A stretch of 64,000 bases of DNA from Gammaproteobacteria bacterium (GCA_022826885.1 JAJDUB010000070.1:49379-113378), one strand, 5' to 3'; shown: positions 22,565 to 40,748, counted from the stretch's first letter. Notes: a model not told the origin generated them from the letters alone. Translations and numbers: made by a program.

Positions 22565-23344
22565 TTAATAAATTAAATGCTTGTCGGGCAGCAACTGACC
22601 TATCCTCTGCGCTACATTGAATAATTCAGGCAGGTAGTTATCGATATTCCGGTCGTTGATGCGGGCTACATTGCCACCGAAAGTTACTGCAGCGATCGGA
22701 TGTTTATCAACGTTGAAAATCGGCGCCGCCAGCGTATACAGGCCGACTTCGAGTTCTCCGTCAACACGGGCATATCCCTGCCGCTTTACCAGTTCCAGTT
22801 CCTTGATTAAATCCGCTCGGGTGGCAATCGACTTCGGCGTGTAGCGCTTGAGCCTGACATTCCCCAGGTACGCATCGAGTTTTTCCGTGTCCTGGTGCGC
22901 CAGCATCACCCTTCCGGCAGCCGAAATACAGGCCGGCATGTGTGTCCCGGGATAAAACGTCACCTGGTCGAAACGATCGAACGAGCTGTGGGCTATACTG
23001 ACAATATCCTGACCATCCAGTACCGAGATCGCGCACGTTTCCCCAACCTTCTTGCTTGCGGCATTGATAATCGGTTGGACCACATCGCCAATCTGCATGG
23101 AAGCCAGGTAAGAAAAACCCAGGTCGAGCATTTTTGGCGACAACCGGAACCACTTGCCGTCGCTGGCCACATACCCCAGGGAAGTCAGGGTCAATAGTAC
23201 CCTCCTGGCCGTCGCCCGCGTCAAACCGGTTTTTGCGGCCACGTCCGCCGGAGACATTTCAACATCTTCAGCGTCAAACGCCGTGATGACTTTCATGCAG
23301 CGTGCGATTGAGCCGATGAAGTCTTTCGAGTCTTTTGAAATCAT
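22565..23344 (-). CDS. IclR-family regulator, PcaR/PcaU/PobR-like
   Basis: SIARCMKVITAF...GLTRATARRVLLTLTSLGYV...FRLSPKMLDLGFSYL HTH; GYARVDGELEVG effector-domain motif. Confidence 0.9.
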   Translation of the reverse strand: MISKDSKDFIGSIARCMKVITAFDAEDVEMSPADVAAKTGLTRATARRVLLTLTSLGYVASDGKWFRLSPKMLDLGFSYLASMQIGDVVQPIINAASKKVGETCAISVLDGQDIVSIAHSSFDRFDQVTFYPGTHMPACISAAGRVMLAHQDTEKLDAYLGNVRLKRYTPKSIATRADLIKELELVKRQGYARVDGELEVGLYTLAAPIFNVDKHPIAAVTFGGNVARINDRNIDNYLPELFNVAQRIGQLLPDKHLIY

Positions 23345-23410: not shown

Positions 23411-25456
23411 TTACTCCACCATTGCCTTCAACAGGGCATCCCTACCATCGGAATAAAATTGAATGTCAATTTTGGTAGCCATGTCATCGGACAAATCATA
23501 GAGTTGCCGACGGCAAGTAACTGGTATCAATAGTGCGGACGCACCTTTTTCAACCGCAGTCTCGGCAATCGTAACGGGGTTGTGAACAGGCTCGATAGAG
23601 CCACCCAGATTAATTTCTCCAACGATGATGAGACCTCCACGCACGCTTTTCTTCAATAAAGCAGTACATAGCGCGATGAGTGATGCCATGCCGAGTTTCG
23701 TACCGGACTTGGACGCATCGAAGGCTCGGAGTTGCGCAGTGAATTCGTGGTGTCGAGGTTCCTTGTCGCCGACCAATTGCATTGACCGCGCGTAAAGGTT
23801 TTGCTCGGCGTAGCCCATACTTTCCCTGAAGGCGGGGGGCACGGGCTTGTTGAGTATCTTGACACCAGTGCCCGGGCCTTCATTGATCTCAATGCGGTAG
23901 AGCCCCGGGTGTTCTTCACCGCCACCCGGCGAGATGGTCCAGACCTGACCCGGTTCAATGGGATCGCTGCCAATGCTGTTTTCGCTTTGCAGTTCCGGCG
24001 TCGAGACAAACTTTTCCACGCCATCGTCGCCCATTGCGTAGCTGAAGTGGGTGTTACGGAATTCCGCCGCGCCGATGCGTTTCTGCTGTTCTTTGACGCG
24101 ACGTCTTGCCTCCATGGCGATATGGACGGCCCACTCGATGTCCTCGTCGGCCACCTCGCCCTCGCCGGGATGGAGAAGCTTGAGTAGCCCACTCACAGTT
24201 TTGTTGACCGCATTTGTATCGCGGCCCGACAGAGCGCCACCGAAAAACACCCGGCCTTGCAGTACACCGACACGGCTTTGATTGCGGAGTTGACTCCAGC
24301 ACTCGGACAAGAAATCGCTCACAAGACCGAAGTGATTCGTCAAAAGCTCCCTGCTGATTTTGGGCACATCCCAGCCAGGCACATATGCGTGGATTCGATC
24401 CATGAATGCTGTGTCGTCTTTCATCTCGGGGGGCATGGGGCCAAACAGGTGACCAATGCGCTGCTGGTGTTCAACATCCACATCGAAGTTCCCAACCAGG
24501 ACGATGCTGCCATCGGCACGGATGCTTTCCTTGCCACGGCTGAATTCGCCGGCCTCCATGTATCCCTTCAGGATGTTCACACCATCTTTCTGATCGAAGG
24601 AGATGCCGGACACCTCATCGAAGCAGACCACATCGTATTGGCAGACCAATCCGCGCTGGCCGGTTGCGTTGTTGACGAACAATTTGGCAACTGTTGCTTT
24701 GCCACCGGAAATCAAGTGAGCATACGGAGAAACCTGCTGGAAGAGATGGCTTTTGCCAGTTCCCCTGGGCCCGAGTTCCACCAGGTTGTAATTTCTCTCG
24801 ACAAAAGGAACCATTCGCAGTATCAAGACATCGCGTTGCCGCAAAGATAATCCATTTGGCTCAATGCCGACGGAGCGAAGCAGAAACTCAATCCACTCAC
24901 CGGTAGTGAAGGACTTGCGGGTCTCTGCCAGGATATCGAGCACATCCCGTTTGGATAGCTGGATTTCCCGGAGCGACGCAACACCGAAGGGTCTTCCTTT
25001 ACTCTCCTGCGCGATAGACGCATCATAGTTCAGACTGATTTCGGCATAGAAGCCGCCTGTCAGCATCCGCTCATGTTCGTTCACCAGTTCGGGGCTGATG
25101 CGGACATCGGTCAGCCGCAAGCTCGGTAGTGTTGCGATGTAGGAGTCGGTTTTCGCATCCAAGCGAGCGGTAATGAGGTCGATGATTTTGATCTCGCCAT
25201 TTTCCCTGGTCCGGGCCTTGAAGAGTTCTTCTTCCCCGGCTTTGACCGTTCTTGATTTGAGTTGCCTTTGGACGATCTCAAGACCCTCATCGATCTCGTC
25301 CTGCTCGGTGCTGGCGCAATATCGGCCGAGTAGAAACTCGACTACGTACGTTGGCACCGGAAATTGACGGCTGAACGTTCGAACCAAATCCTTTCGAACT
25401 AAGTACCCGTCGAGCGAGGTAGCCGCCTTTTTGTCGATCTGGTCCATTTCAATCAT
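23411..25456 (-). CDS. brxL: BREX Lon-like AAA+ protein BrxL
   Basis: VPTYVVEFLLGRYC, NYNLVELGPRGTGKS Walker A, VVCFDEV Walker B, DTAFMDRIH; Lon-like C-terminus without the GPSAG catalytic motif. Confidence 0.93.
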   Translation of the reverse strand: MIEMDQIDKKAATSLDGYLVRKDLVRTFSRQFPVPTYVVEFLLGRYCASTEQDEIDEGLEIVQRQLKSRTVKAGEEELFKARTRENGEIKIIDLITARLDAKTDSYIATLPSLRLTDVRISPELVNEHERMLTGGFYAEISLNYDASIAQESKGRPFGVASLREIQLSKRDVLDILAETRKSFTTGEWIEFLLRSVGIEPNGLSLRQRDVLILRMVPFVERNYNLVELGPRGTGKSHLFQQVSPYAHLISGGKATVAKLFVNNATGQRGLVCQYDVVCFDEVSGISFDQKDGVNILKGYMEAGEFSRGKESIRADGSIVLVGNFDVDVEHQQRIGHLFGPMPPEMKDDTAFMDRIHAYVPGWDVPKISRELLTNHFGLVSDFLSECWSQLRNQSRVGVLQGRVFFGGALSGRDTNAVNKTVSGLLKLLHPGEGEVADEDIEWAVHIAMEARRRVKEQQKRIGAAEFRNTHFSYAMGDDGVEKFVSTPELQSENSIGSDPIEPGQVWTISPGGGEEHPGLYRIEINEGPGTGVKILNKPVPPAFRESMGYAEQNLYARSMQLVGDKEPRHHEFTAQLRAFDASKSGTKLGMASLIALCTALLKKSVRGGLIIVGEINLGGSIEPVHNPVTIAETAVEKGASALLIPVTCRRQLYDLSDDMATKIDIQFYSDGRDALLKAMVE

Positions 25457-27798
25457 GAATTATCTCCACCTATTACCGTGGCGATTTGCGCAACCAGCGA
25501 TCCATCAGTATCAATCAGTACAACTGTTGCTTCACGCCCCTCCATGTCCTCGTTCTCGACGACCACGGAGGCTGTTCCCTTGTCTTGAAGGAGCTTAACG
25601 CCGACGACCACACTGGATGAAGAATTGCCGGCTTGGCTGCGAACATCAAGTGATAAGTCCGAGAAGTTGCCATCCACGGCAACAGTGCAGCGCAAACCTT
25701 TCCACACCACGTCCGTAAATTCGACAGATGCCGCTGCCTGGGCAGATGCGCCTCGCGTTACCGTCAACTGCAGTGTCAGGCACTCTTGCAGGCTCAGGCC
25801 GCCATGGGTGTACTCTTCCCCTTTCTTGAAACAGCACACGCCATCAGCGAGGGCAAAATACTGGTTTGGATTCCAATACCATGGATAAAGCCGCTCCTCG
25901 GTCGAGGCGCCCGGCTTCAATGAGGCGCAGCGTCCCCATTTGCTTTCCACCAGTGCGCTGGGAAGTTCGATTTTTGGCAATCCTCCAGGTAGCAACAACC
26001 AGCCGTGATCCGTCACAACCCTAACGCGCTTCCAACCTGCCGCCAACAGTCCCATGATACGGTCTCTGATTTCCATAATCAGATCATCGATGTGCTTGGC
26101 TAGTTTCCATCCGCGGTCATGACCTTCGTGGTCGATGTTCCCAAATTCACACCATGCTCTGCCCTGGCCATCGCCATCAGTATAGTGTTCAAGGATCGAC
26201 CATCCCGCCTCGGTCAATAACTTCTTCAGATGGTAACCTCCCTTTAATGACTGACCGGTATCCGCTACCGAAGGCTCGAAATCAGGGCTGCCATCCACAT
26301 CCCGAATCTTGTCTCTCACTGGGGTAACTGCCGCCTTGCCTGTAGCAGTTACGCTAGGTAGGGCCGCCCAGGTCGGTTCCTCGGAGACCTCAAGCCCACA
26401 TGTATCCAGGTACTCGACCAGACGCTTTCCGGCATCGAAACGGAGTCCGTCGACGAACAGAACGCAGTCCCCGGGGCTGAAAGGCGTTTCCTTAACCGTC
26501 AGGTAGGTGCCTCCCGGGTAGGATGCGTTATCAACCAGTTTCTGGAGATAGCGGGCTGATTCTTCCACCCACGGCAAGTAAACGGATCGGATGGCGGTTG
26601 CCACGGCTTCAAAGTCAGCAGGACTATCCACCTGGGCCAAGGCCCGAATCACTCCGTCATCGACCCGCCACCCTTGACTGCGATAACCCGTTGCGAGATC
26701 GTCCACCGAACCTGCAGCAAGGCTGTTTTTCGTGCTTTCGGCAATGGTCGCCAAGTGTTCCAATGCGCAGGCCAAAGGGGCTTCGTCCAGTTCGGCCCAG
26801 ACCAAATCACGCCTGTGGCCGTGCTGTTTTTCCAACTCTTCAATCCTGGTTCTCGCTTCGTGCGGGGGCACTTTGTCAAGGGTCGTAAGTCTATGGCAAA
26901 GTTCTTTTTCTTGGATGTCATTCCATTGAGGCCAGCCCTCAGCCCCCTGCTCATCTTTGAACAGGTCAAATTCTGGCGGCTGACACCTTCTGATTTGAGC
27001 GGGGATGTTCGGATAGTGCTGAGGAGCCTCGCAGTAACGCTCCCAAACAGCCTGCCACGGGCCTTCGTGGTTTGCGAGCCTAGCGCTCCCGGCCAGAACG
27101 CCTTCGTTCCGGGGGTTGAAAGCCAGTTGGGATTTGCAGACCTCGACAAAGGCTTTCCATTCGTTCTCGCCACGACTTGCCTGGAAGGCATCCCCCTGAT
27201 CGAGCCATTGCAGCAGGTCGCGAATTGGGTCACCCGTCAACAGGGTGTTGAAGTAGTCCTTGTCCAGGCGCTTGCCTTTCAGTAAGGCGACATCCTCGTC
27301 AAGAAGCCGACGCAACGCAAGCTGCATTGCAATTTTGGCATCGTTGTCCTGGGCTACATCAAGCCCAAGCCCACCTTGATCTGATTTTAGATAGGCCAGG
27401 ACCGTCCAGTCCTTGGCATTTATTTGTGACCAGATCACGCCTCGGTATTGCAACTCGGCAAGCGGCTTCAAGTGATCCGGGCAGCTTTCGATTGCTCGCA
27501 GGTCCTGGCGGCTGACGCCTGGGAGATAAAAAATTGGCGTCCGGTCCTCAGGCGGAGATACATCCGGAACCTGACCGGCAATCACGCAACGTAACCAGAG
27601 GGCAGGCCCGATACGCTTTTCGGGCGCATAGTCACCCAGGGTCATGAGTTCAGGCAGTTCGGCCTGAAGAACGGGTATGGCAGCCTCCCACTGACGGTCA
27701 CGATCCGGCCAGAGAATACAGGCCGGAGCTACCTGAACCTCGGGATTGAAGACTGCGGCATCACGGACTGCTTTCAGGAGATGATCGAGCAATCTCAT
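25453..27798 (-). CDS. pglZ: BREX PglZ (alkaline phosphatase-like; type B-like)
   Basis: VLFVDGLRFD, AALPSVTATGK, NIDHEGH, VVTDHGW and YTHGGLSLQEC PglZ motifs; directly upstream of brxL (ATGA overlap). Confidence 0.92.
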   Translation of the reverse strand: MRLLDHLLKAVRDAAVFNPEVQVAPACILWPDRDRQWEAAIPVLQAELPELMTLGDYAPEKRIGPALWLRCVIAGQVPDVSPPEDRTPIFYLPGVSRQDLRAIESCPDHLKPLAELQYRGVIWSQINAKDWTVLAYLKSDQGGLGLDVAQDNDAKIAMQLALRRLLDEDVALLKGKRLDKDYFNTLLTGDPIRDLLQWLDQGDAFQASRGENEWKAFVEVCKSQLAFNPRNEGVLAGSARLANHEGPWQAVWERYCEAPQHYPNIPAQIRRCQPPEFDLFKDEQGAEGWPQWNDIQEKELCHRLTTLDKVPPHEARTRIEELEKQHGHRRDLVWAELDEAPLACALEHLATIAESTKNSLAAGSVDDLATGYRSQGWRVDDGVIRALAQVDSPADFEAVATAIRSVYLPWVEESARYLQKLVDNASYPGGTYLTVKETPFSPGDCVLFVDGLRFDAGKRLVEYLDTCGLEVSEEPTWAALPSVTATGKAAVTPVRDKIRDVDGSPDFEPSVADTGQSLKGGYHLKKLLTEAGWSILEHYTDGDGQGRAWCEFGNIDHEGHDRGWKLAKHIDDLIMEIRDRIMGLLAAGWKRVRVVTDHGWLLLPGGLPKIELPSALVESKWGRCASLKPGASTEERLYPWYWNPNQYFALADGVCCFKKGEEYTHGGLSLQECLTLQLTVTRGASAQAAASVEFTDVVWKGLRCTVAVDGNFSDLSLDVRSQAGNSSSSVVVGVKLLQDKGTASVVVENEDMEGREATVVLIDTDGSLVAQIATVIGGDNS

Positions 27799-27801
27799 GT
27801 G

Positions 27802-28440
27802 TTATCTCAAGGCTTCAAGTTGCTTTACCCAGGCATCAAACAACGGGCATTCTCCACGAATGATGTCCAGACCGATGTCCAGGGCAATCAGGGAGCCGTG
27901 AGCAACTTTATCATAGGCGTCACAGACTGCTAGGATTCGCTTGGAAGGGGCAGTATCCCGGTTGTCATTAATATGTTCTGGCGAAGCAAAATTATTCTTG
28001 ACACTATTTAATGTTTCTACAATATAGGCATCATCAAACCACTTGGCGAAAGCAGTGGGGTCACTAAACAGCAAACTTTCAAATTCATGCACTACAATAT
28101 TTGAAATGAAGTTACGCCGGTCTATGTCTTCCTTAAATGCACCTTCAACAGCTTTAGCTCTAGCGAACGAGTCTCCTGTTGACGTCATCGCCGGAAAGTC
28201 ACTGGGGAGTCCATAGAAATCCAGCATGGTTGTCACCCAGGCAGTGTTGTCCTCCTTACATTTTCTTTCAACTTGTCGTTTGATCTTGGCATAAGATGAA
28301 ACTCCTCCTTTTCCTTGTGGCCCCGTGCGAATTATGATTGGTGTAAGCCAGATATTCATACGCTGAAAATACGGCTGAAGAACTTCCCGAACGAATACAT
28401 CCTCGGTCTGCCCCTCGCAAAAAACATGCACACGGGTCAT
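27802..28440 (-). CDS. DUF4276 family TOPRIM-like protein
   Basis: RVHVFCEGQTE (TOPRIM-like Glu), MLDFYG, HEFESLLF, PEHIND...APSKRI and CPLFDAW; ATGA-coupled to the upstream ATPase. Confidence 0.8.
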   Translation of the reverse strand: MTRVHVFCEGQTEDVFVREVLQPYFQRMNIWLTPIIIRTGPQGKGGVSSYAKIKRQVERKCKEDNTAWVTTMLDFYGLPSDFPAMTSTGDSFARAKAVEGAFKEDIDRRNFISNIVVHEFESLLFSDPTAFAKWFDDAYIVETLNSVKNNFASPEHINDNRDTAPSKRILAVCDAYDKVAHGSLIALDIGLDIIRGECPLFDAWVKQLEALR

Positions 28441-29522
28441 CGTGTCGGCCTCCCACCCAGAACATTCTTCTGCCAGAGTTCGCTCAGCGAATACTCATTG
28501 AGCCAACTTTCCAATGCCTCGGAGTTAAGTCTATGAAGATGAGAAACCCCCTCAGTTCGGTCAGCCACAATTACATCATCTGGCGAGAACTCATTCAGAA
28601 GATCCGTGGACTGAGTCGAAACGATGATCTGACGTGTTTTGGAAGTAGAGCGCATAAGAGATGCGAGCAGATTGATTGCGAATGGGTGCAATCCGAGTTC
28701 CGGCTCATCGATTAGTATGGTTTGTGGTTGAAATTTCTCAGGCTGCAACAACACGGTAGCCAAGCAGATAAACCGCAGGGTGCCGTCAGAAAGAAGATGG
28801 GATTTGAAGGGCACGTCTTCACCTTCTTCTGTCCACTCCAGTTCAATTTGATCTTTATTGTCTGGTTGGGGTCGAAGTAAAAAGTCCCCGAAGAACGGAG
28901 CAACCAAACGTATCGTTTTTACAATTCGTGTGTAGTGTAATGAATACTGATCTTTAAGTAACGAAAGAAAGGCGGCCAGATTACGGGCATCCGGGCGCAG
29001 GTAAAGATTATCATTGAGTCCATGTCTCTGTTTTACTAAAGCGCTATCACTAGTGTCATGAAAATGATAAAGGCGCCAACTTTTCATTGCAGGTACTGTG
29101 AATTTATATATGCGCGTATTGAGCTTCTGTGACTCTACTTCGGATTCAAAGTGCCCGGAGCTGATATGCCAGTTCCCTCGAACGTTCCACCAGAAATTTT
29201 CCTCAGCAAACATCATGCGATTATCCTGGGTCGGTTCCAGCATGAAATTGTAACCGTTATTACCAAAATAAAGCTCTGCGCTCAGATTTTCCGTATTCTT
29301 CCGGCCAAAATGCAGTAATGCATCCGGTCCACCTTGCTTGCTTACATAGAGCTGTAGTTTGCCTTCCAGCATCTGTTGGATCAGGCGAAAAAAGCCAATA
29401 AAGTTGGATTTTCCGGCTCCATTAGGGCCAATCAAAACATTCAGCTCTTTCAGTTCCACGTCACACTCTCGTATAGACTTAAAGCCTAGTAACTTGATTC
29501 GGGATAGTTGATACTGATTCAT
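28437..29522 (-). CDS. ABC-type/AAA_21 ATPase (COG4637-like)
   Basis: GPNGAGKS Walker A, LSDGT signature, ILIDEPELGLHP Walker B/D-loop, STQS switch. Start re-called to MNQYQL after an AGGAGG SD. Confidence 0.88.
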   Translation of the reverse strand: MNQYQLSRIKLLGFKSIRECDVELKELNVLIGPNGAGKSNFIGFFRLIQQMLEGKLQLYVSKQGGPDALLHFGRKNTENLSAELYFGNNGYNFMLEPTQDNRMMFAEENFWWNVRGNWHISSGHFESEVESQKLNTRIYKFTVPAMKSWRLYHFHDTSDSALVKQRHGLNDNLYLRPDARNLAAFLSLLKDQYSLHYTRIVKTIRLVAPFFGDFLLRPQPDNKDQIELEWTEEGEDVPFKSHLLSDGTLRFICLATVLLQPEKFQPQTILIDEPELGLHPFAINLLASLMRSTSKTRQIIVSTQSTDLLNEFSPDDVIVADRTEGVSHLHRLNSEALESWLNEYSLSELWQKNVLGGRPTR

Positions 29523-29617
29523 GTTTGCTCCTCCTGTGCTTGCGTAGCGCATTTTTCGGCTTGGTTAAAGTGGTAGTCGTTAATGCCGTCGCCGTTGAAT
29601 AGATTGTTGAAAGGCAT
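29519..29617 (-). pseudogene. Degenerate duplicate of the pglX 3' end (32-codon mini-ORF MPFNNLFNGDGINDYHFNQAEKCATQAQEEQT)
   Basis: Aligns without gaps to the PglX C-terminus PWYHLFRGDRINDHHLTLTEKRAAR. By hand count 36 of 46 nt are identical (29548-29593 vs 33179-33224). Its TGA overlaps the ATPase ATG. Confidence 0.75.
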
Positions 29618-29619
29618 GA

Positions 29620-32600
29620 TCATTCGTCCTCCCGTTTGTGTTCAGCAATAATCCGTTTAGCCTCTCGGTCATAGCTGTCCGCCAAGTCTCGCAGGGTAAC
29701 GGCAAATCGCTGAAACCCCGCGTTCTCTATTTCCTCGGCTTTATTTCGGAACTGTTCTGCCAGTTCTCTCTCCGGCTTGCCGGATGGGTCAACCTCATGA
29801 ACGCCGCGAGAGTTGAATGTTCCTGTTCCAAAGCCATTGCGCAACTTATCAGCCTCACGATCATTGAGTTCTGTAGCGACAGCGCGGTGTATCCACAATC
29901 CGTCCGGATCCTCTGGGGCATGAATCAACACTTCACCAATGTTAATAAGCGCAACTTCCAGGTGGCCGGATTCCGTACAGATGAACTTTACGCGCTGGAG
30001 CCATTCGGTAAAGCGCTCTTCGCTGAAAGTTCCATCCTTTTGAGTTCCTGGTGGCGTTTTCCACTCACGTAGCAATCGCCAGGCATTTGTTGCAATTGCC
30101 TTTGCTTCTTCTGTGGGTTCCTTAGGAGGCTGATCTTCTTTCTTAGAGCGGTAGATCAGTTGGATTGCTTCGCAAAAGAACTCGGGGTCGTTGGCCAGCC
30201 TGCTTTCAAGGAGCCGGGGGGTGGCTCCTCTATGGCCGTCTAATATGGGTAGATATGCCCACTCCACTCTAAACAGGTCGTCTTGGATAACCGAAGAATC
30301 TGCCTGCAGAAACTTGATCAGTTCGACGACTTGATATCCCCTTATGGAATAGGTCGGCTCAGGGGAAGAAACTGCAGCGATCAATGCTCGAACACATTGA
30401 TCGATATCAATTTCCTGCTCGGCTTGGCGTATCCTGTCAAGGCAATAGATTGCCGCATACGGTCTGCCATGGTCAATGAGTTTTTCAATAGCAACGGTAA
30501 GATCGCTATCAGCCTGATAAGCATTGGCGCCCGTACGGGTCCAATATTCTCCTTCATGCTCCTGAAGCCATTTAGAAGCGCGGTCCCATGCCTCCTTTGT
30601 AAATGGCAAGCAGGTCAGGAATTGTCCTATTTGCTCTGACGTCCAACCTGATTTGTCGATATTGTCGCACCAGTTCCAATCTTTGACGTGGTAGCGTCGA
30701 CAGATAAAACCGCTCGTAAATGCCTTGCGCTTGTTGTCCGGTGCATCCAGAAATTCAGGTAAAAGAGCCTGCTCAATTACATCGTCGACAATAACGCCAA
30801 GAGCGTATCCCACCTTTCTTGCTGAGGTAACGGTTTCAGCAAATCGGATGACACCCTCGACACGATTTTTCTGGAAGATTTCCGATATGGCCTTATCCCG
30901 CCTCGCGTCGAGTTTCTTTTCCTGCTCTTTCCAATCGCCATTCTCCTCGTAAAGATCAAAGTCATCATCAGTAAAAAGGTGCCGGTACAGGTTTGACGGA
31001 TCAGTCGGAGCGAGTTGCTCGGCAACTAGCCCAAGGCGGGAAATCGAGTCCTCAGGCAATGCCCATTCTGTATCGGAGTACCGTCGGTGTTTGTGTGTGA
31101 CTTGCGTGAGGTGCTCCCAAAACGATAACCGTTGCTCTTCGGGAAGTTCGGTAACAGGTTGTGAGGCAAGGACTCCGATAAGTTGCTCGAAAGCTGGTTG
31201 AGGCAGTTTGTCAAAATGGTCGATTAACTCGGAAAGTCGTTCGATGTCATGGTCGGCGGCAATAACCGCAAGCTCCGCGTAAAAGGAAACCTGTTGCCAG
31301 TATTCCTGCTGCGTTACATTTTCTTTCCAGTTATCAGGAATTGTCTTTCGCCAGCTTGGTTTGTGCGAGCCGGAAGAGATCCGGTATTGGTCGGGAAGCA
31401 GTTGAATGAGCAGAGTCCAGGCGATATCAGGCCATTCGTTCAGAAGTGTTCGCACCGCTGTCTTGCGCTTGTCAACAGATGCGAGCGTTTGCGGAAGCCA
31501 GGGAAGTAATATGGTTATAAGCGAATTGGACGGACGATTGCCCCATTGACCCCCAGGGTCATGGCTGGCAAGTTCACCAAGCACAACGCAAACCCGAACA
31601 AGATATTGTTCATCCCAAGCCAGGCCTTCCAGCGCCCACAGCAGGCCGGTCAGATAGTTACCGCCGGTGATGCCGTCTCCTTCCTGGGCAAAAAGTTCGA
31701 AAAAAGGGCAAGGTGTCAGGCGCAACGCTTTCTCGACTGCATCAAGAAATTCACCGGGGGCTGCTTCTGCCAGATTGGGCAATAATCTTTCCAAGCTGCC
31801 CCACAGTATCCAGTCAGCATCAGACAGAATTTCACGCAAGACTAATAAACAAGTCGTTTCAACTTTCCCTTGCGAGCATTTGCTGAATGCATCGGGCGTG
31901 CTACCTAGAATGGCCAAACCCTCAGCGACTCCTTTACGCAAAACGCGCGAACACTCCAACACTTTGCCCTGGATACTCGCCGTATATCGTTCTTCTGCGG
32001 GTAGCTCAAAAGCGGGGTCTGGCTCTTTTAACACGGATATAGCTAACGACTTGAAGGTGTCGATGTCCTGATCAAGAATGCGTGCTCCCAGCAGGCTTAG
32101 AAGTTCAACTCGATTGACAACTTTCCAGATGCCGTTGTTGAGAGACAGAGGGCTGTCAGGGCTGAGCAATATTTCACGCGCCTTCTTTAGCCATTCGTCA
32201 TAGCTGATGCCGAGGAGTTGAGCAATCGTATCACGGTCACGTTGACCCTTTTCATCCCAGGCACCAATCAACACAGATAGGGCCAGAAAGGTGGCATCAG
32301 AATGTTGCGCCCTATCAATCGTAGGTTTCTCTTGGGTCGCCTCGAACTCCTCGGGTATTTTCGCCACTGCTTTTTGCTCGAAGGCTTCCAGCAGGTCTTC
32401 CGGTAGATTGTCGGGTGTGATGGTTCCAGCATCCTGATTCCATGTTTGTACGAAATCAACAACTTGTGACCAGACCCGTTGCGGATGCTGCTGCTGGAAT
32501 TGAGAAATGTGGGAATGTAACAGAGACAGGACAACGCCAAACTCGTTGCCGAGATCGTAGCCGAGTAAATGGAAGTGTTTCAAGAAGTTGTAGAGGTCAT

Positions 32601-33159
32601 CCCTTGTAACCTCTTTGTCGTCGTTAGCTGCTTTCAGGTGGTGTTGAATGACATCAAGTTTCTCAGTGCTCTTGGATGGGCTGAAATTCGACTGCTGGAC
32701 GTTCCTGAAAAACTCATCAACGTTTTTGGTGTGCCTTGCCTGGTTCAACAGCCATTGCACGTTGTGTGCATCGGTCGCGTTGAGCGGGCCTGTGATCAAC
32801 GCGATGATGTCCTTGTCTCTTGTGAATACCTTGGGATTATTGAAATCATTCCAGGCGGCTTGAATAACCTCCTTGAACGAAACGCTACTTTGGATTATGG
32901 CAATGGAATGCTTGACCTGGCCAAGAAGTTTCCGTCGCTCCCTATTGCTTGGGTTTTCTACGACAACTACAAGATCGTCTGTGTCGAAACCATCGATCTT
33001 GCCCTGAAGTTTGATTTCCGTAATAGGCCAGCAGGGAAGACAGGGGGCATGCCCGCCGGTGAGCATCAATGTGACAAAAGATGCCTGCACATGCGCTTCA
33101 AAATGAGGGCCGCCACCACCAGTTGAAAAAGGATTACTGAGGTTTTTACTCTTGCTCAT
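29620..33159 (-). CDS. 1179-aa protein with N-terminal PD-(D/E)xK (Cap4/Mrr-like D...QxK) nuclease domain and long, apparently helical C-terminal region; putative defence effector
   Basis: STGGGGPHFE...DTDDLVVV...LLGQVKH nuclease-like motif; no Walker A seen; ATGA-coupled to the pglX stop. Confidence 0.65.
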   Translation of the reverse strand: MSKSKNLSNPFSTGGGGPHFEAHVQASFVTLMLTGGHAPCLPCWPITEIKLQGKIDGFDTDDLVVVVENPSNRERRKLLGQVKHSIAIIQSSVSFKEVIQAAWNDFNNPKVFTRDKDIIALITGPLNATDAHNVQWLLNQARHTKNVDEFFRNVQQSNFSPSKSTEKLDVIQHHLKAANDDKEVTRDDLYNFLKHFHLLGYDLGNEFGVVLSLLHSHISQFQQQHPQRVWSQVVDFVQTWNQDAGTITPDNLPEDLLEAFEQKAVAKIPEEFEATQEKPTIDRAQHSDATFLALSVLIGAWDEKGQRDRDTIAQLLGISYDEWLKKAREILLSPDSPLSLNNGIWKVVNRVELLSLLGARILDQDIDTFKSLAISVLKEPDPAFELPAEERYTASIQGKVLECSRVLRKGVAEGLAILGSTPDAFSKCSQGKVETTCLLVLREILSDADWILWGSLERLLPNLAEAAPGEFLDAVEKALRLTPCPFFELFAQEGDGITGGNYLTGLLWALEGLAWDEQYLVRVCVVLGELASHDPGGQWGNRPSNSLITILLPWLPQTLASVDKRKTAVRTLLNEWPDIAWTLLIQLLPDQYRISSGSHKPSWRKTIPDNWKENVTQQEYWQQVSFYAELAVIAADHDIERLSELIDHFDKLPQPAFEQLIGVLASQPVTELPEEQRLSFWEHLTQVTHKHRRYSDTEWALPEDSISRLGLVAEQLAPTDPSNLYRHLFTDDDFDLYEENGDWKEQEKKLDARRDKAISEIFQKNRVEGVIRFAETVTSARKVGYALGVIVDDVIEQALLPEFLDAPDNKRKAFTSGFICRRYHVKDWNWCDNIDKSGWTSEQIGQFLTCLPFTKEAWDRASKWLQEHEGEYWTRTGANAYQADSDLTVAIEKLIDHGRPYAAIYCLDRIRQAEQEIDIDQCVRALIAAVSSPEPTYSIRGYQVVELIKFLQADSSVIQDDLFRVEWAYLPILDGHRGATPRLLESRLANDPEFFCEAIQLIYRSKKEDQPPKEPTEEAKAIATNAWRLLREWKTPPGTQKDGTFSEERFTEWLQRVKFICTESGHLEVALINIGEVLIHAPEDPDGLWIHRAVATELNDREADKLRNGFGTGTFNSRGVHEVDPSGKPERELAEQFRNKAEEIENAGFQRFAVTLRDLADSYDREAKRIIAEHKREDE

Positions 33160-36100
33160 TCAGCAGCCTTCCGTGCGGCGCGTTTTTCGGTCAGGGTTAA
33201 GTGGTGGTCATTTATGCGGTCGCCTCTAAACAAGTGGTACCAGGGGGCGGATTCCACGTCCTTGCCGCGGTCCTTGTTCCATTTGATGTTGGGTTTGTCG
33301 CGCAGGACGCCTGCGCCTTTTTTTCCGACATCAGGTACGGTAAGGAAGGGGCGGATGTTGAGGCGTACCCCGTCGTTCAGGTCAGGGTCCCAACCGATGG
33401 GTTGCTTTTCCAGCGGTTTCCAGCGCACGAAGATGTCGTAGGGCTCTTCGCCTTTGAGGATCAGTTCCAGCTTTTTCTTGAGGCTCTCTGCGGCGTCTAG
33501 GCGCTCTTGGGCTCCGTCCACGCCACTGGCTATGTCCTGCTTCTGACGGCTGATCCAGTCACCTAAGTAGGTGTAAATCAGGGTCTCCAGCAGCTTGGCG
33601 TCGAGCTTGTGGTAATTGACCAGCGCGGCGAAGCCGTCGCGCAGGCCATCCCAAATGTGCCAGATGAAAGGGCGATGTTGAAACAGTTTGCAGTGCTGAG
33701 TGAAGAATTTCTCCCGTAGCCAGGTTTCCAGTGTTTTTCCCGTGTGATCGACGCTCTTCAGTAGCGCGGGCAGGGTTTCGTTGGACCAGGTATCACCATA
33801 GGCAGCGGCCAACAGGTTCAGTAAGCGGTCGGAACCAGAAGCCTCGCCTCGCACCGGTGGAATGCAGACGATGCTGTCATCATCGGCGAAGTTTGCAAGG
33901 ACTTCGCACTGCTTGACATATTCACGTTGTTCGTCGGCCAGCTCCATGCTGGCATCCAACTCGGCAGGCCAGCAATAGCCGAGGAGGCGAGCGACGGCGA
34001 CGTGTAGCACGGTGTAATCGGTACGCATCGGGCCGAGGTCAGTCCATTTCTTATCCTCATCCCAGACCACACAGCCGCAGGGGTGGCCGTGAAAGATCCA
34101 TTGGGTGGGATCATTGGAGTAGGGTCTTGGCAGGCCGTTAGGATATCTCTCTTTGGCGACCCCGCTCCAGTGGTCCAAGTCGAAGGGAACCTTGACCAGT
34201 GTGGCGTTAGTAACATTCAACTTTTGATCGATGCAACGAACATCATCGTTGTATTCAGGGCTCGAGCAATAGCACCAAAGAGCTGGAAGTACCTCTTTGT
34301 GCTTTGGAAGAATTACACCGATATTTGAATCAAATTTATTCCCAATGTATAGCGCTGACGGCAGCACACGCATTTCGCTGACGGCTATCCCCCATTTCCC
34401 CCAAGCAGAGTTCCCTCGCTGATCGGAATCATGGAGTCGTTCTCGCCTGAAATCACCGGGAAGACGCATATGTCCGTTAACATCGTCATATTCGATTACT
34501 TTTTCAAGGCCACCAAAATGGGTTGTCTCAATAACAGTACCCTGCTGGTAAACAAAGTACTTACCTTTGGTGAAAAACTCCCAGTACTGCCTTTGAAACC
34601 GAGGTGAGTCGCCATTCAGAATCCCTGCTAGGCCATCTGCACTTTCTTTCAATAAGTTGTGCCCAGAAGGCTCACTAAGGATTATGGTGTTATCAGGATT
34701 CTCCAACTGCTTCGCCTGCTCGACACTCTTGATCTCCGCTGTCAGCAACTGTGCGGCTTTCTCGGGAGCGGTGCGGGGTTCAGAAACATCCATGCCGCGA
34801 ATCAGGTTGCTGTCTTCGGCATTACCAAACATCCCTCCCGATTCTTTTGTTGAGTTGCCACTGCTAAGACTGATCATTGCCACGAAAGCACCTGCTGCGG
34901 CTGTTGAATCAAAGCCACCTTCTCCCAACCGGGCAACCAGATGCCAGGTGTCATTTTTCAGCAGCTTCTCACGAAATTTCTTATAACTGGTCAGGAAGAG
35001 CCAATTCTGTGGCAATACAATGCTAGAGGTGCCACCGTCGATGCAGAATTCCAGGCAGCGATCGAGGAATACGGTCGCCAAATCATTTTTTGCGGCAGAA
35101 TAAAATCTTTCGCAAAAATCGCGCAACCGCTCATTTTGCTTGCCTCTCGCAAGATAAGGCACGTTAGTAATTACCCATTGATAGCGCCCAGCGAGCAAGG
35201 TCGCGGCCTTGGCCAGCCCCTGGGCCACAATGGCAACTTCCTGCTGCTCTTCGCTTTGTTCCTGTTTCAGTGCCTGTTCCAGTGCGCTTGAGAGATCATT
35301 CCACTGCACCAGCTTAGAAGCGTCCGATTTTGCTGGATTAAGCAGACTTCCCAGGACCGGTGCATTCTTGAAGGTGTCGTGCAGCCAATCCATTGCAATG
35401 CGCAAGTTGTGTTTGCCCATTGCCAACTGTTTCCATTCCTCCTTGGCGACGCTCACGGACAAGCCGGAGCAGGCAACATTCAATTCCGGCAACACGCGGT
35501 AGCCGCCAGTCCCAGGGTATTTCCAGGCGGTCAGCGCCAAGGCAAAGGCGGCCAATTCCACGCAACGTTGATCCAGTTCCAGGCCATGGATGTTTTCTCG
35601 CAGTACTGCGTCCACTGACTCCTTGGCCGAAAGGCTGTCGCGCACCATGCGTATCGGCACGAGCATCAGGAATGCCGCCACCAGAAAGTGGCCTGAGCCG
35701 CAACAAGGGTCGAGAGTCTTCAAGTCGGCAAGTTGCTCCGGCCAGCCGTCAAAGGTTCCGGCCGCTGGTGTCCAGGCGCCATCCTCCTGCTGCACAAAGC
35801 GCAGATATTCAAGCGGTACGCCGGGGATGGACGCTTTCTCGCGCAATTCATTTTCGCTGCTGGCGTTCTTGAGGTCGAATACGGTGAGCCGCTTTCCCGC
35901 CCACCAAGCTCCCAGAGAGTTATCGAGCAGGAAGCTGACCATGTAGGGTTCGGTAAAGAGCTGGGTCACGGCGGGCAACTCCCGTGCGCCGATCTTGACC
36001 TCGGAAGCGTTGACTTCATCCTTCTTTTTGGCCTGCCAGAATTGATAGACCCAGCCGAGACTGTCGGAGGCAGTGAACACCTCCGGCGGCAGGTCGGCCA

Positions 36101-36614
36101 CCAAGCGTTCCAGTTTTTGTTGGTGCTCCGGCGGTAGGACAATTTGGAAGACCGGCGAATCGAGCTGGAAGATCTGTGGCAACATGCGGGCGGCGAAACG
36201 GGCAGCCAGTTCCCAACCGTTGGCCGCGCCTTCATCTGCGGCAAGGTCTTCACACTCTTCGAGGGTGACAGCCACCGGCCCATCCGGGTCCGGATACATC
36301 AACAGATTGTTCTCGGCCAGGAAACAGGCAAACAGCATTCGGTGCCAGTGCTCGTAGGAGACTTTTTCTATAAGAAGATCGGTAGCCTGTTCACCATTCG
36401 GTTTACGGCGGTCGCCTAACTGCCGTCCATGCACTCGCAGACGGCGACGCAGGACGCGATCCGATTCGTTGAGATGTGGATATGGGGCAGTTTCCCTGAC
36501 GCCAAGCTGTTCCAGTGCCGCCTGGGCAGCTGCTTCGGCAATATCACGCGCGTCCTTGACGGTGCGCTCAAGTCGATTTCTTAATGTTTTGTCCAGCGGC
36601 TGCATGTTCTTCAT
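33156..36614 (-). CDS. pglX: BREX adenine methyltransferase PglX (BrxX)
   Basis: TQLFTEPYMV, LDPCCGSGHF (motif I), ITNVPY (NPPY-like motif IV), RPFIWHI and PDLNDGVRLNIRP. Start may be MQPLD at 36605. Confidence 0.9.
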   Translation of the reverse strand: MKNMQPLDKTLRNRLERTVKDARDIAEAAAQAALEQLGVRETAPYPHLNESDRVLRRRLRVHGRQLGDRRKPNGEQATDLLIEKVSYEHWHRMLFACFLAENNLLMYPDPDGPVAVTLEECEDLAADEGAANGWELAARFAARMLPQIFQLDSPVFQIVLPPEHQQKLERLVADLPPEVFTASDSLGWVYQFWQAKKKDEVNASEVKIGARELPAVTQLFTEPYMVSFLLDNSLGAWWAGKRLTVFDLKNASSENELREKASIPGVPLEYLRFVQQEDGAWTPAAGTFDGWPEQLADLKTLDPCCGSGHFLVAAFLMLVPIRMVRDSLSAKESVDAVLRENIHGLELDQRCVELAAFALALTAWKYPGTGGYRVLPELNVACSGLSVSVAKEEWKQLAMGKHNLRIAMDWLHDTFKNAPVLGSLLNPAKSDASKLVQWNDLSSALEQALKQEQSEEQQEVAIVAQGLAKAATLLAGRYQWVITNVPYLARGKQNERLRDFCERFYSAAKNDLATVFLDRCLEFCIDGGTSSIVLPQNWLFLTSYKKFREKLLKNDTWHLVARLGEGGFDSTAAAGAFVAMISLSSGNSTKESGGMFGNAEDSNLIRGMDVSEPRTAPEKAAQLLTAEIKSVEQAKQLENPDNTIILSEPSGHNLLKESADGLAGILNGDSPRFQRQYWEFFTKGKYFVYQQGTVIETTHFGGLEKVIEYDDVNGHMRLPGDFRRERLHDSDQRGNSAWGKWGIAVSEMRVLPSALYIGNKFDSNIGVILPKHKEVLPALWCYCSSPEYNDDVRCIDQKLNVTNATLVKVPFDLDHWSGVAKERYPNGLPRPYSNDPTQWIFHGHPCGCVVWDEDKKWTDLGPMRTDYTVLHVAVARLLGYCWPAELDASMELADEQREYVKQCEVLANFADDDSIVCIPPVRGEASGSDRLLNLLAAAYGDTWSNETLPALLKSVDHTGKTLETWLREKFFTQHCKLFQHRPFIWHIWDGLRDGFAALVNYHKLDAKLLETLIYTYLGDWISRQKQDIASGVDGAQERLDAAESLKKKLELILKGEEPYDIFVRWKPLEKQPIGWDPDLNDGVRLNIRPFLTVPDVGKKGAGVLRDKPNIKWNKDRGKDVESAPWYHLFRGDRINDHHLTLTEKRAARKAAE

Positions 36615-36630
36615 CCATCCAATGTAAACG

Positions 36631-36714
36631 TTAATGCTAACTCAGCATTAAGCTGAGCATTAAATCCATTTTAATGTTGGATTTAATGCTGGTCAGCATA
36701 AACGGTAGCATTAC
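36631..36714. repeat. Array of seven AGCATTAA/TTAATGCT-like octamers in mixed orientation with about 12-bp period
   Basis: Copies start at 36631, 36644, 36656, 36671, 36683, 36695 and 36707. Includes a perfect 13-bp inverted repeat (36656-36668 / 36678-36690). Lies in the brxC-pglX intergenic region. Confidence 0.85.
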
Positions 36715-36744
36715 TTGAGAGCTTCCAGTGGTCCACGCAGCCCT

Positions 36745-39700
36745 CTATCTGATCGATACCGGGCCTTTGGCCAGCGCAGCCTTGAGTTGGCCCTTCACTT
36801 CTTCTGCCCAGTCATCGATTTCGTCGTCCGTTTTCAGGGTGGGCCGGCGCACATTCACAAACTGAATTTTGGGTTCGCACAACTCGGCAGCGCGAACCGC
36901 GACATTGTCAAAGCGGCCGGGCAGCGCCGCAACGCGGTCGGTGAACATCGACAAACTGCAGCGGTCCAAGGTAATCAGTACATCGCTGGATGATTGCACC
37001 GCTACTGTGGGCCGGTCAGACAAGGTGAGTCGCTGTTCGGACAACAATAGATTCCGCTGCTCGGGCTCTAACTGTTGCCAGTTGCCGTCGTCTGCAAGAC
37101 GTTGCATGCCCTGTTCGTGACGGTAGGCATATTCTTCATCGAGCTTGTTGAGCTCACCCCGCAGCAGTTGGGTCAGGTTGGCGATCAGCGGCGCGGTCGG
37201 ATCCGGGTCCTCGAGAAGCTGGCGCTGATGCTCAATGGTATTCACTTGGGCCAGGATAACCTCTGCGTCCTGAACCCCGGAGGCGTGATCCATCAGGCGC
37301 GTCAATTCGTTCCAGTTGGGCCAGCGTTTGGCGATGCGTTTGCCGAGATCGTCCCAGTTATCAATGCGGTCGCTCAGTTCATCTCGCTGGTTGTAGAGGG
37401 CAAGCAGTTGCTCGTTACCCGCCGTGAGGCGGATTTCGTCAAGGGACGCGGTGTCCGGCCGAGCCGGTTTCGGCGCCTCGCCACCAGCCTGGTCGGCGAG
37501 CCCCAGCATTTTCTTCAGGAATTCCTGCACATCCTTCAATTCCTGGCCCGGATTGGCCGAGAGCCCTACCTTTGACAGCAGCTTGCGGATATCTATCCGT
37601 TGGGCAGTGGTGACGGTGGCGGATTCCACCTTGAACATCACTTTGCCAATGGTTTTGCGCTCCAGGTCCGTAGATTCGAAGGCCTGGCCGCGCTCGTCTT
37701 GTGCCTGGATCAGCCCGACCACCAACAAAACTTGTAATCCACCGTCCACGGCGTCGCGTGACCATCCGTAGGGTGCAGACTCGAACTCGGTGCGGATGTC
37801 CGCGCCTTTTTTGCCGCCGGCGATTAAACCGAGAATGGCTTTGCATACTGGGTTCCTGGTGGGTTCACCTTCATCGCCTACGGCCTTGAGTGCGTCGGGA
37901 GCGCCTTTCCGGGCCTTTTCATAAACCTTGGACCAGCCCTCGTCGTCAGCGGTGTGAAACTGGGGATAGAGTCGTTGCAGCGAGTTATTGGAGGCTTCCA
38001 GCACCATCTCCTGTAGATCGTTGCCGAGGATTTCGTTGCCGCCGCCCTGAAAGACACGTGCTCCGGAGAAGACATCTTCGAGCAGTTCATGAATCTTGCC
38101 TTCGGCCGTCTGCCTGGTGGTCTCCATGGCCGCACGGGCCTCGGCGCCTTCCGGGCCATTGGGAACACCGCGCTTATCCAGCGTGGCTACGGCAGCCTTG
38201 TAGTCGATGAGGTGGTAGCGAAGGTCATCGGCCGAGCGCTTGGGAATGAACACAAAAACGGTCGGTGACTGATTGCCCGCTTGCCTTGAGTCGGCCCGCA
38301 CCGAGTTCTCGTCAATGCTCCACCCGTCACGAACCCAGACAGAAATGCGTTGATCGGCGTCGGTCGGAAGCTGGGCGTCAAACACCGGAAAAATGTCACG
38401 GGTGACCTTCGAGTTGCCTTGGGTCAGAGAAAGTTTGCGCACCATCTCGCCGAATTTCTTGTGGATGCGGTCGTCGCGTTCTACTTCGATGTGGTGCGCT
38501 TCGTTGGACAAGGCAGAACGTTGACTCAGGAATTCGTCGCTCCAGGCCGCGCTCTCTTCGGTCTGGATGCGGTATTCGTTACCGACCTTCATCAACAGAT
38601 CGCAATTATCAAGCAGGCTTGGCAACTTGCTGCGCAAACTGCTGCTTCCGCCAGAAAGGTTTTCGACCAGTAGATCGGCGAGGGTATCAATGGTGGCCTG
38701 GATACCGATTTCATTGTTCTGGCTGCCGAGCTTGTTGATGAGGAATACCAGGCCGCAGGCGCGCGCCATAAGCTGTTCATCTTTCGTACCCTTATTCCAG
38801 GTCATCGTCTTTTCGTGGACCTTGCGCGGCAGAATGCGCGATTGGAGCAATTTGTCGGCAGAGTCGAAATAGAGATAGTCTGCCGGTACAACATGGCCTA
38901 GGGGTTCATTCAGGTTAGTTTGGATAACCTTGTGAACCATGCTGAGCTGGTTACGTAGCTGGCTGTCGGTTCCGGTCTGATCCAGGACCCGGAGGGTATT
39001 TTCCCAGAAACGCCGGCGTACCGGCAGGATGGGATAGTCCTGGGGGAAATGCTGAATGTCGTCCTGTCTGTGACCGATGCTTGTACCTGCAAGATGCCGG
39101 GAGATCTCGCCCAGGTTGGTTTGCATGATCTGTTCGATGGGCGTCTTTGCTTCCGGCTTCTTGGCCAGAATGACCTGGCGGATGACCGCATCGACGTCTG
39201 CATCGGAGAGTTCCACACGGATGGTAAACCGCGCCTCAAGCTTTTTCAGGTTGCTGGTGCCTGTCACTGCCGTCTGGCCGGTGCCGATGAAGAGCAGTTT
39301 GCCGCCAATATTCTTGCAGCAGGCTTCCACCGCCTCCTGTACGTCGATGGAGCGCTGGCTGTCTTCGCCTATGTACTGTTGCACCTCGTCAAGCGCCACC
39401 AATGTCAGCGGGAATTTGCCGTCCTTCGTCAGCGCCTGACGAATAGCCTTTAGCATGTCATCGCTGGAAACATCCTGAACGTAAGGGTAGAGGTTATTCA
39501 GGGTCTCGACGCAGGATGCGGGTGATGAAAAGAGCCCGGGCTTCGCCTGAACGAGGGCGTCATGAAGGCCCTCAGCCACGTAAAAGTTGTCCAGTTCTTC
39601 GTTCCAGTCGTAGTCGTTCCGCTCAACATGGGCACGGACCTGGTCATGGATTCCTTCTTGCGTGAGCCACATGACGAAGCGGGCGACAGGGTATTGCTCA

Positions 39701-40182: not shown

Positions 40183-40196
40183 TATCAAACCCTTAT

Positions 40197-40748
40197 TCAA
40201 TATTCTTTGTCCGCAGTGATTGGTACAGCGAGATAATTCCACCCGTCATAGCCATCCAGTAGCCTGTAGTTGTTGTCCTCAAAACTGCCCGGGAAGAAGA
40301 CCAATAGCCTTCCGGTGACCATGGGGGCTAACTTGTCGACGACTTCTTTCACCTTCAAAAAGCCGAAGAGCGACCCGACACCTTGAATTGCCACGACGGA
40401 ATTCGCTCCGGTGTCGTTCTCTTGAAGGAACTTCTCAAACTCATCGGCGATGAAAGCAGGGTACTTCGGTAGCAACGTGGAGAGCAAATGTGGCTCCTGG
40501 AAGTAACTCCTGGCGTACCGTTGTGAGGCGAGCCAATTGGCAAAGGTATCCGTCAGGTCGAACATGGCCCACTCATGGTTTGCCTGTCGCGTGACAATTT
40601 CAAATTCACCGACTTTAGCCCGCAATGAGCGTTCTTCGTTTTCGTTGTAAACACAGAAGATCACGCGCTGTGCAGCAGCGGCATCATCGCGCCACGGGAT
40701 GGAGATATATTTGCTGTACGATTGTATAAGCCGTTTAATTCTGCTCAC
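40197..40748 (-). CDS. brxB: BREX protein BrxB (DUF1788)
   Basis: GVGSLFGF...GRLLVFFPG...YRLLD...NYLA motifs; size and position directly before brxC. Confidence 0.85.
   Translation of the reverse strand: MSRIKRLIQSYSKYISIPWRDDAAAAQRVIFCVYNENEERSLRAKVGEFEIVTRQANHEWAMFDLTDTFANWLASQRYARSYFQEPHLLSTLLPKYPAFIADEFEKFLQENDTGANSVVAIQGVGSLFGFLKVKEVVDKLAPMVTGRLLVFFPGSFEDNNYRLLDGYDGWNYLAVPITADKEY

Follow-up and report, generated by a model that had tools for sequence, protein, structure and literature searches.

In a 64,000-nt stretch of DNA from Gammaproteobacteria bacterium GCA_022826885.1 (JAJDUB010000070.1:49379-113378; hereafter the window), we observe a complete type 1 BREX operon on the minus strand, ordered brxA-brxB-brxC-pglX...pglZ-brxL, with further genes at 27802-33159 in the slot between pglX and pglZ. 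This operon very likely carries two independent defense modules that were stacked in the pglX-pglZ gap by recombination between related loci. Module 1 is a single gene for an 1179-amino-acid (aa) protein with a predicted nuclease head and an alpha-solenoid body, and module 2 is an ATPase/DUF4276 gene pair matching the candidate system HEC-01. Between the two stands a 32-codon open reading frame (ORF), the mini-ORF, whose larger part derives from the end of a pglX gene.

Two modules between pglX and pglZ

The genes of the operon and the elements of the slot, in the order of transcription and with positions counted in the window, are as follows.

40735-41664, minus strand: brxA (PADLOC BrxA PDLC02450, E 4e-107, residues 48-306)
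40197-40748, minus strand: brxB (PADLOC BrxB, E 2.6e-82; Pfam BrxB, E 3.5e-8)
36745-40242, minus strand: brxC, P-loop protein (PADLOC BrxC, 1683 bits; NCBIfam BREX_BrxC, E 5e-283)
33156-36614, minus strand: pglX methyltransferase, intact (PADLOC PglX, 1824 bits; Pfam Eco57I and N6_Mtase)
29620-33159, minus strand: module 1, gene for the 1179-aa protein (predicted Cap4-type head at about 17-260, alpha-solenoid at about 290-1179)
29603-29619, minus strand: spacer of module 1, TC plus the first five mini-ORF codons (DNA alignment with loci L069, L098, and L014)
29519-29617, minus strand: mini-ORF, 32 codons (spacer ATG at 29617 in frame with the pglX remnant)
29519-29602, minus strand: pglX 3'-end remnant, 27 codons and stop (58 of 84 bases identical to the tail in locus L090)
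28437-29522, minus strand: module 2 gene A, HEC-01A, OLD-type ABC ATPase (AAA_21) (PADLOC HEC-01A, E 6e-155; Pfam AAA_21, E 3.5e-29)
27802-28440, minus strand: module 2 gene B, HEC-01B, DUF4276 (Pfam DUF4276, E 9e-59; PADLOC HEC-01B, E 5e-84)
25453-27798, minus strand: pglZ, type B (NCBIfam BREX_PglZ_1_B, E 3e-295)
23411-25456, minus strand: brxL, Lon-like (Pfam BrxL_ATPase, E 4e-131; PADLOC BrxL, E 2e-300)

The six BREX core genes each match their own PADLOC profile (E 4e-107 to 0) and lie on one strand in type 1 order, NCBIfam adds matches to BREX_BrxC, BREX_PglZ_1_B, and BrxL, and all genes of the operon are intact, with no internal stops. The pglX-pglZ gap measures 5357 bases and holds three genes and the mini-ORF. 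The original prediction, made by a model from the sequence alone, had described a near-unbroken chain of coupled genes from pglX to brxL, and every junction is exactly as written there: the pglX stop overlaps the start of the 1179-aa gene as ATGA, 2 nt separate that gene from the mini-ORF, the mini-ORF/ATPase and ATPase/DUF4276 gene junctions are again ATGA overlaps, 3 nt precede pglZ, and pglZ and brxL overlap as ATGA. The longest ATPase ORF begins at ATG 29552, and the overlap requires the in-frame ATG at 29522. This start is preceded by AGGAGGAG, which contains an AGGAGG site, and from it residues 1-359 of the ATPase lie on positions 1-362 of the 363 in the HEC-01A profile, that is, end to end.

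Runs of short gene overlaps are common in bacterial operons, and the gene spacing observed here fits a single operon. Neither promoter-like sites (9 found versus 12.4 expected from shuffling) nor terminator-like sites (16 versus 21.6) exceed chance, and these counts thus speak neither for nor against one operon. In composition, the cargo has a G+C fraction of 0.45-0.50, compared with 0.54-0.57 for the BREX genes.

A pglX remnant at the joint of the modules

The mini-ORF had been read as a pglX tail, which holds for its last 27 codons and stop but not for its first five codons, which belong to the spacer of module 1. In the related locus L090, an intact pglX ends in ...APWYHRFNGDRINDHHLTLAEKRAARENGKQT* and overlaps by ATGA a HEC-01A that is 72% identical to the one in the window. 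In frame, the mini-ORF's final 27 codons can be aligned with this tail up to ...QT* and the same ATGA, with 58 of 84 bases identical. At the protein level, the mini-ORF peptide reaches a best BLOSUM62 local score of 76 against real PglX tails, compared with maxima over the same 76 tails of 25.4 on average (standard deviation, 4.0; highest, 41) for 300 shuffles of the mini-ORF, and 70 of the 76 tails outscore every shuffle. The remaining part, TC followed by ATG CCT TTC AAC AAT, instead has its homolog in the spacer behind the 1179-aa gene of L069, L098, and L014, where approximately 34 bases lead to the pglZ start. The recombination joint thus lies at about 29603/29602, and these alignments identify the mini-ORF as a chimeric scar, in which 17 nt of module 1 spacer are joined to the end of a pglX that would once have overlapped HEC-01A.

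An ORF that begins 2 nt past the upstream stop and ends as ATGA on the HEC-01A start might also be kept open by selection, either for handing ribosomes over from the 1179-aa gene to HEC-01A or as a functional micropeptide, and in locus L034 both of the linker ORFs that bear a pglX tail likewise overlap the next cargo gene by 4 nt (13466/13463 and 15522/15519). We consider this improbable. The position of the mini-ORF ATG is not conserved in its spacer (ATG in L069, GAG in L098, AAG in L014), an ATG in frame with the pglX tail is a 1-in-3 event, and HEC-01A has its own strong AGGAGG site, so that coupling is not needed. In addition, residues conserved in real PglX tails are replaced in the mini-ORF (W to F, Y to N, H to N, and R to G), as expected without selection on its peptide.

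Cargo variation and scars across related BREX loci

A metagenome scan with PglZ yielded 80 BREX loci, 14 of which were set aside since their contigs stop short of pglX. Together with L014, L034, six same-class genome loci, and the window, the metagenome loci form a slot set of 76 loci with a pglX end and a pglZ start (the pglX end of L034 was set by hand at 9683), which collapse to 62 distinct loci at 98% identity. The slot is empty (20-142 bases) in 7 of these, holds one module in 31, and holds two or more in 24. The single modules are GmrSD (13 loci), the 1179-aa gene (5, including two frameshift-split copies), HEC-01 (3), a 431-aa protein with DUF3644 (unk431+DUF3644; 3), DUF3644 (2), and, once each, Ppl-like, Septu, PDC-M07, Menshen, and one unnamed module. 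Across the slots, representatives of the cargo match the defense families GmrSD, Ppl-like, Septu, HEC-01, HEC-02, PDC-M07, Menshen, TIR, Schlafen, and DUF3644. These recombine in many combinations: GmrSD is stacked with Ppl-like, DUF932, an unk331/252 pair, or DUF3644, HEC-02 is found behind Ppl-like, DUF3644, or the 1179-aa gene, and Septu lies behind TIR, while the pairing of the 1179-aa gene with HEC-01 is confined to the window among the 62 distinct loci. The proposal of an expandable site between pglX and pglZ, variable in its cargo, is thus borne out for this BREX subfamily.

Several recurrent slot genes match neither Pfam nor PADLOC: the 431-aa protein, usually located before DUF3644 (family C5; L054:7703-8995 type), the 331- plus 252-aa pair (C12 and C13; L113:8214-9206 and L126:9155-9910), and a 191-aa protein that precedes a TIR gene (C15; L073:6573-7145). 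By their embedding, they are further defense candidates. In two metagenome loci (L120:3863-7391 and L122:1541-5073), the 1179-aa gene of the slot lies in two overlapping frames, apparently by frameshift, and these split genes may be decaying copies or assembly errors.

The tight coupling of all cargo ORFs could also be expected of a single integrated three-gene system that is merely located within BREX, and cross-talk is conceivable since both modules pair a sensing part (solenoid or ABC ATPase) with a nuclease-type part. This explanation is largely refuted, and we see very little chance that it is correct. The three genes do not travel as a unit: none of the 50 genome loci with a homolog of the 1179-aa protein, obtained from a one-genome-per-species scan, has HEC-01A or HEC-01B beside it, HEC-01 occurs alone in L090, L103-L105, L111, and L128, and the slots of the 80 metagenome BREX loci contain both modules in no case, the 1179-aa gene alone in five, and HEC-01 alone in five. 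Furthermore, the pglX-tail scar stands between the two modules, and near-identical strains appear to carry the same nuclease gene without HEC-01 beside it (see below).

Comparison of each slot with pglX tails and pglZ heads reveals extra pglX or pglZ fragments in 7 of the 24 distinct stacks and in none of the 31 single-module slots, and all of them are located exactly at module boundaries. The seven are as follows.

Window: pglX tail between the 1179-aa gene and HEC-01
L034: two linkers among the 1179-aa gene, HEC-02, and unk431+DUF3644
L116/117: pglZ head at the Schlafen/HEC-01 boundary
L125/126: pglZ head where Septu meets unk331/252
L127: pglX tail ahead of HEC-02A
L142: pglZ head at the boundary of Ppl-like and HEC-02
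L144: pglZ head at the DUF3644/HEC-02 boundary

The linkers of L034 (L034:12957-13466 and L034:15013-15522) are 169-aa ORFs in which PglZ residues 1-67 are followed by 67 unrelated residues and then by a PglX tail; they agree in 475 of 510 bases (93%), and each reaches 4 nt into the gene that follows. We also considered an array of the integron type. The slot of the window consists of three cargo genes and the scar, none of which matches an integrase family, and the joints are BREX-gene fragments rather than repeats, although no search was aimed at attC sites.

Recombination in close relatives and order of arrival

Comparison with genome G018 (locus L141), which belongs to the same genus, indicates that the region has been exchanged. 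At the amino acid level, brxL is 100% identical between the two, pglZ 96%, brxB 98%, brxC 90%, and pglX 73%, and the slot of G018 holds different cargo, namely, a 1002-base DUF3644 gene. The DNA is 99-100% identical at approximately 26550-23400, 91-95% across the initial 1.2 kb of pglZ, and 81-85% in the 3' part of brxC, placing a recombination break inside pglZ, near 26550-26600. By this profile, a block from the 3' part of brxC to the 5' part of pglZ, including pglX and the cargo, was exchanged by homologous recombination.

Contigs from three public DNA runs of two studies (X2, X3, and X4) cover window positions 29629-35659, a stretch of 6031 bases with the 1179-aa gene and the greater part of pglX, in which they show 9 differences (99.85% identity); the match over pglX ends at 35659, where the contigs end. 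The same runs contain pglZ-brxL with 159 differences in 4398 bases, the 5' part of pglZ being approximately 93% identical. At 29629 and 27797, the contigs part from the window and continue with at least 1268 and at least 653 bases of other sequence, respectively; the HEC-01 stretch (27798-29628) is uncovered, no contig joins its two sides, and its counterpart is deduced from loose contig ends and contig sizes. The loose ends have no exact match in 147 loci. Counted by eye, the 30 bases upstream of pglZ agree at 29 positions with the HEC-02B-pglZ junction of L142 (G020, same genus). It thus seems that in a near-identical strain, the nuclease gene is the same but the second module is a different one.

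The original prediction further held that the ATPase/DUF4276 pair arrived first and the nuclease gene later. The scar is symmetric in this respect, and either order gives the same product. With HEC-01 resident, the observed structure would result from an incoming fragment of pglX, nuclease gene, and spacer that crossed over homologously within pglX on its left and was joined illegitimately at pglX codon -27 on its right, and a contig from a further run (X5) that bridges the HEC-01B/pglZ junction at 97.7% identity (10 differences in 426 bases) shows that this junction exists in another strain. The mirror event, in which a fragment of pglX tail, HEC-01, and pglZ head entered a locus with a resident nuclease gene, would give an identical structure. 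We rate the HEC-01-first order as rather doubtful. In X2-X4, pglX and the nuclease gene are 99.85% identical to the window, the HEC-01 stretch is uncovered, and the sequence upstream of pglZ resembles a HEC-02B junction, and the break relative to G018 falls inside pglZ, as expected if the pglZ-proximal module came with the 5' part of pglZ. The apparent second module of the near-identical strain does not fit HEC-01 first as a simple history, yet it is compatible with it. The order of arrival is probably the reverse, with the nuclease gene preceding HEC-01.

A predicted Cap4-type nuclease head on a solenoid body

The 1179-aa protein has no match in Pfam (E <= 0.01), PADLOC 2.0.0 (5027 models), or NCBIfam. 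An AlphaFold2 model (mean pLDDT, 85.4) displays an alpha/beta head at approximately residues 17-260 followed by a mostly helical body. The head, folded separately (pLDDT, 79.9), resembles the N terminus of Avs3 (8dgc; VIA Z, 13.0), CBASS Cap4 (6vm6 and 7yib; 12.1 and 10.4), Lamassu LmuA (9ux8 and 9hr5; 10.8), and Hachiman HamA (8zue; 10.2). These superpositions align 179-218 residues, and the next, unrelated VIA rows have a Z of about 7. Foldseek with the head assigns the same set a probability of 1.00 with E values of 1e-5 to 1e-3 (LmuA, 1e-5). With the whole protein, it returns generic HEAT/ARM solenoids and Avs3 at template modeling (TM) scores of 0.1-0.2, such that only the separate head is informative, and an ESM Atlas search with the protein returns unnamed clusters only.

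Five residues of the head, E21, D61, D62, Q81, and K83, are invariant in an N-terminal alignment of 25 sequences; in a full-length alignment of 30 sequences, D62 is invariant and each of the other four is at least 90% conserved. The copy in the window carries all five, giving the pattern E...DD...QxK, which is typical of PD-(D/E)xK nucleases. Fold and motif together support a predicted Cap4-type PD-(D/E)xK nuclease, in agreement with the label of nuclease first given to this gene.

Membership among the Avs/STAND receptors was considered as well. The 1179 residues contain no Walker A pattern ([GA]xxxxGK[ST]), and Pfam, PADLOC, and NCBIfam report no NTPase family; lacking a P-loop NTPase and being mostly helical after the head in the model, the protein is not a STAND protein.

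Relatives are numerous: of 8000 candidates scored, 2671 reach E <= 0.001. Identity is 73-95% for the best 120, and any names given to them read "hypothetical." The 50 genome loci extend over many bacterial phyla and two methanogen metagenome-assembled genomes. An exhaustive search of representatives with the solenoid body alone recovers 5798 representatives of 50% clusters at E <= 0.001, to which a word-based homolog search with the body adds nothing, finding close relatives only. We picked eight body relatives for differing head length: four carry other heads of the conflict type, matching the GT4-conflict glycosyltransferase, the Metallophos phosphoesterase, Schlafen AlbA_2, and SIR2_2, and the other four have no Pfam match. 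Judged from these domain matches, the body family is a putative sensor body with exchangeable effector heads.

Around 47 of the genome loci, the 109 neighboring proteins include six type I specificity subunits, five RhuM-like proteins, and four ResIII proteins. Two of the 50 loci, L014 and L034, belong to the same BREX subtype and carry the 1179-aa gene between pglX and pglZ. A homolog outside the slot was observed in L092 (L092:14493-18032; 61% identical), where pglZ ends at about 12400 and the homolog lies over 2 kb further downstream; the slot of this locus is filled by a GmrSD gene. We found no description of the family in the literature from 2022 on, where supplements of BREX papers may list it.

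Module 2 is the candidate system HEC-01

Payne et al. defined HEC-01 as an ABC ATPase plus a TOPRIM-like partner embedded in Hma systems (bioRxiv 10.1101/2024.01.29.577857). The window carries adjacent genes for HEC-01A (the ABC ATPase) and HEC-01B (DUF4276), which overlap as ATGA, and by these profile matches the pair is the catalogued candidate system HEC-01. Identity with PARIS was also examined, and the pair is not PARIS: under the thresholds applied, the partner's only matches are DUF4276 in Pfam and five HEC-01B models in PADLOC, with no AriB model among them, and the match of the ATPase to the AriA profile (E 6e-28) falls far below that to HEC-01A (E 6e-155). The expectation of an undescribed system was therefore overstated, as HEC-01 is already in PADLOC and the embedding of genes between pglX and pglZ has already been published.

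Flanks and other features of the operon

The BREX operon is chromosomal, and three neighboring genes mark its flanks.

41680-42981: rsmB, on the brxA side (NCBIfam RsmB, E 2e-154)
22565-23344: IclR-type regulator, on the other flank
21421-22554: MFS transporter, on the other flank

From its genes, the system is predicted to confer site-specific N6-adenine methylation and phage exclusion. The longest brxA ORF comprises 309 aa, with the BrxA profile matching only from residue 48, and the true start is probably further downstream; the overlaps of brxA with brxB (14 nt) and of brxB with brxC (46 nt) hinge on uncertain GTG starts. The middle of pglX (window 34401-34700) has no BLASTN match in 130 loci, while both ends of the gene match at 80-90%, a pattern that fits a swapped target-recognition region. 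In addition, the brxC-pglX gap represents a second cargo slot, with 130 bases in the window (36615-36744) and 1.7-1.8 kb in G018 (L141) and G020 (L142); in G020 (L142:3689-5401), it holds a gene for a 570-aa protein with Schlafen AlbA_2 and HATPase_c_4.

Relation to known systems

Core-gene gaps also serve as cargo sites in type I restriction-modification (R-M) operons, which hold embedded genes such as PrrC in EcoprrI, and in 6 of 47 genome loci, a homolog of the 1179-aa gene has a type I specificity subunit as its neighbor. Unlike in type I R-M, the host system here is BREX, and the scraps are pglX tails and pglZ heads. As in Avs, a large helical array follows the nuclease head in the 1179-aa protein. 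Unlike Avs3, CBASS Cap4, LmuA, and HamA, the protein has neither a STAND or other P-loop NTPase nor a SAVED domain, it lacks an SMC or helicase partner, and the family differs from these systems in being a single gene with a solenoid of approximately 890 residues.

The use of the pglX-pglZ gap as a cassette site is as such already published. Went et al. report one or more genes between pglX and pglZ in approximately 7000 of approximately 9000 genomes, with BrxU and PARIS as the commonest known systems (PMC11341690). In Salmonella Typhimurium D23580, one promoter upstream of brxA drives the whole BREX-PARIS island (PMC11341690). That island (ariA and ariB) is, like the operon in the window, a type 1 BREX with an embedded pair of OLD-type ABC ATPase and nuclease. 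The window, known from sequence only, differs in that the partner is DUF4276 (HEC-01B) and not the DUF4435 TOPRIM AriB, and in having a second, unrelated module and a pglX-tail scar.

According to Payne et al., BREX, DISARM, and type I R-M often hold embedded genes, which they catalogued; module 2 matches their HEC-01A and HEC-01B profiles end to end, the system having been defined in Hma and occurring here in BREX (bioRxiv 10.1101/2024.01.29.577857). The main text of that study contains no words beginning with "remnant" or "recombination," while its supplements may bear on scars. A 2026 survey places GmrSD, OLD-ABC-linked nucleases, Schlafen, and PD-(D/E)xK nucleases in or beside BREX core loci (PMC12839542), which are the same cargo classes as in the slots surveyed here. 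We found in it neither stacks with core-gene scars nor a protein with a Cap4-type head and a solenoid, and its Supplementary Data S4 may list the family.

Origin of the stack and its significance

On the reading that we favor, two independent modules joined by recombination, the donor of module 1 would be a locus with the 1179-aa gene directly before pglZ, from which 17 nt of spacer were carried along, and the donor of module 2 a locus in which HEC-01A overlapped the pglX stop, contributing the last 27 pglX codons; joining the two fragments would produce the 32-codon mini-ORF. By analogy with other immune proteins that have Cap4-type heads, the solenoid of module 1 may sense a phage cue and release the nuclease. 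Module 2 would act as a PARIS-like pair of sensor and nuclease, formed by an OLD-family ABC ATPase and a TOPRIM-like DUF4276 partner. An antiphage function of either module is suggested by gene content and context.

Several points weigh against this reading. No recognizable scar is present in 17 of the 24 stacks. Module limits are operational, being drawn around units that also occur alone, and stacks such as Ppl-like plus GmrSD (4 distinct loci) or Ppl-like plus Schlafen (4) may be single systems. A sliding 300-base BLAST over the fetched loci finds at most approximately 91% identity to the slot region, save for the pglZ-brxL part, and with no locus closer than approximately 90-91%, neither the donor loci nor the order of events can be read from these loci. 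Cotranscription and translational coupling of the cargo with BREX would follow from a single transcript, which we assume from gene spacing alone. Finally, Payne et al. saw no HEC-01-mediated protection against the phages that they tested (bioRxiv 10.1101/2024.01.29.577857).

A bolder extension, which we put forward tentatively and with less than even confidence, is that the pglX-pglZ gap works as a recombinase-free cassette array, in which a retained pglX tail or pglZ head becomes a portable homology arm, and that the 1179-aa protein is a new single-gene phage sensor of a head-swapping family. Scars could later serve as homology arms, so that homologous recombination with another BREX locus would add a module beside the resident cargo and not replace it. 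Portable arms would explain the recurrence of linkers, such as the 169-aa unit used twice in L034 and the pieces ahead of HEC-02 in L034, L127, L142, and L144. If this is true, BREX operons would be self-extending defense islands.

The points of interest are thus the record of accretion left in the scars and the family of solenoid proteins with a Cap4-type head. From the scars in the window and six further distinct loci, one can read that recombination moves modules from one related BREX operon to another and that they can accumulate instead of displacing one another. For the very large and uncatalogued Cap4-head/solenoid family, the slot provides strong support of the "guilt by embedding" kind, which makes this family a good candidate for a single-gene antiphage sensor.

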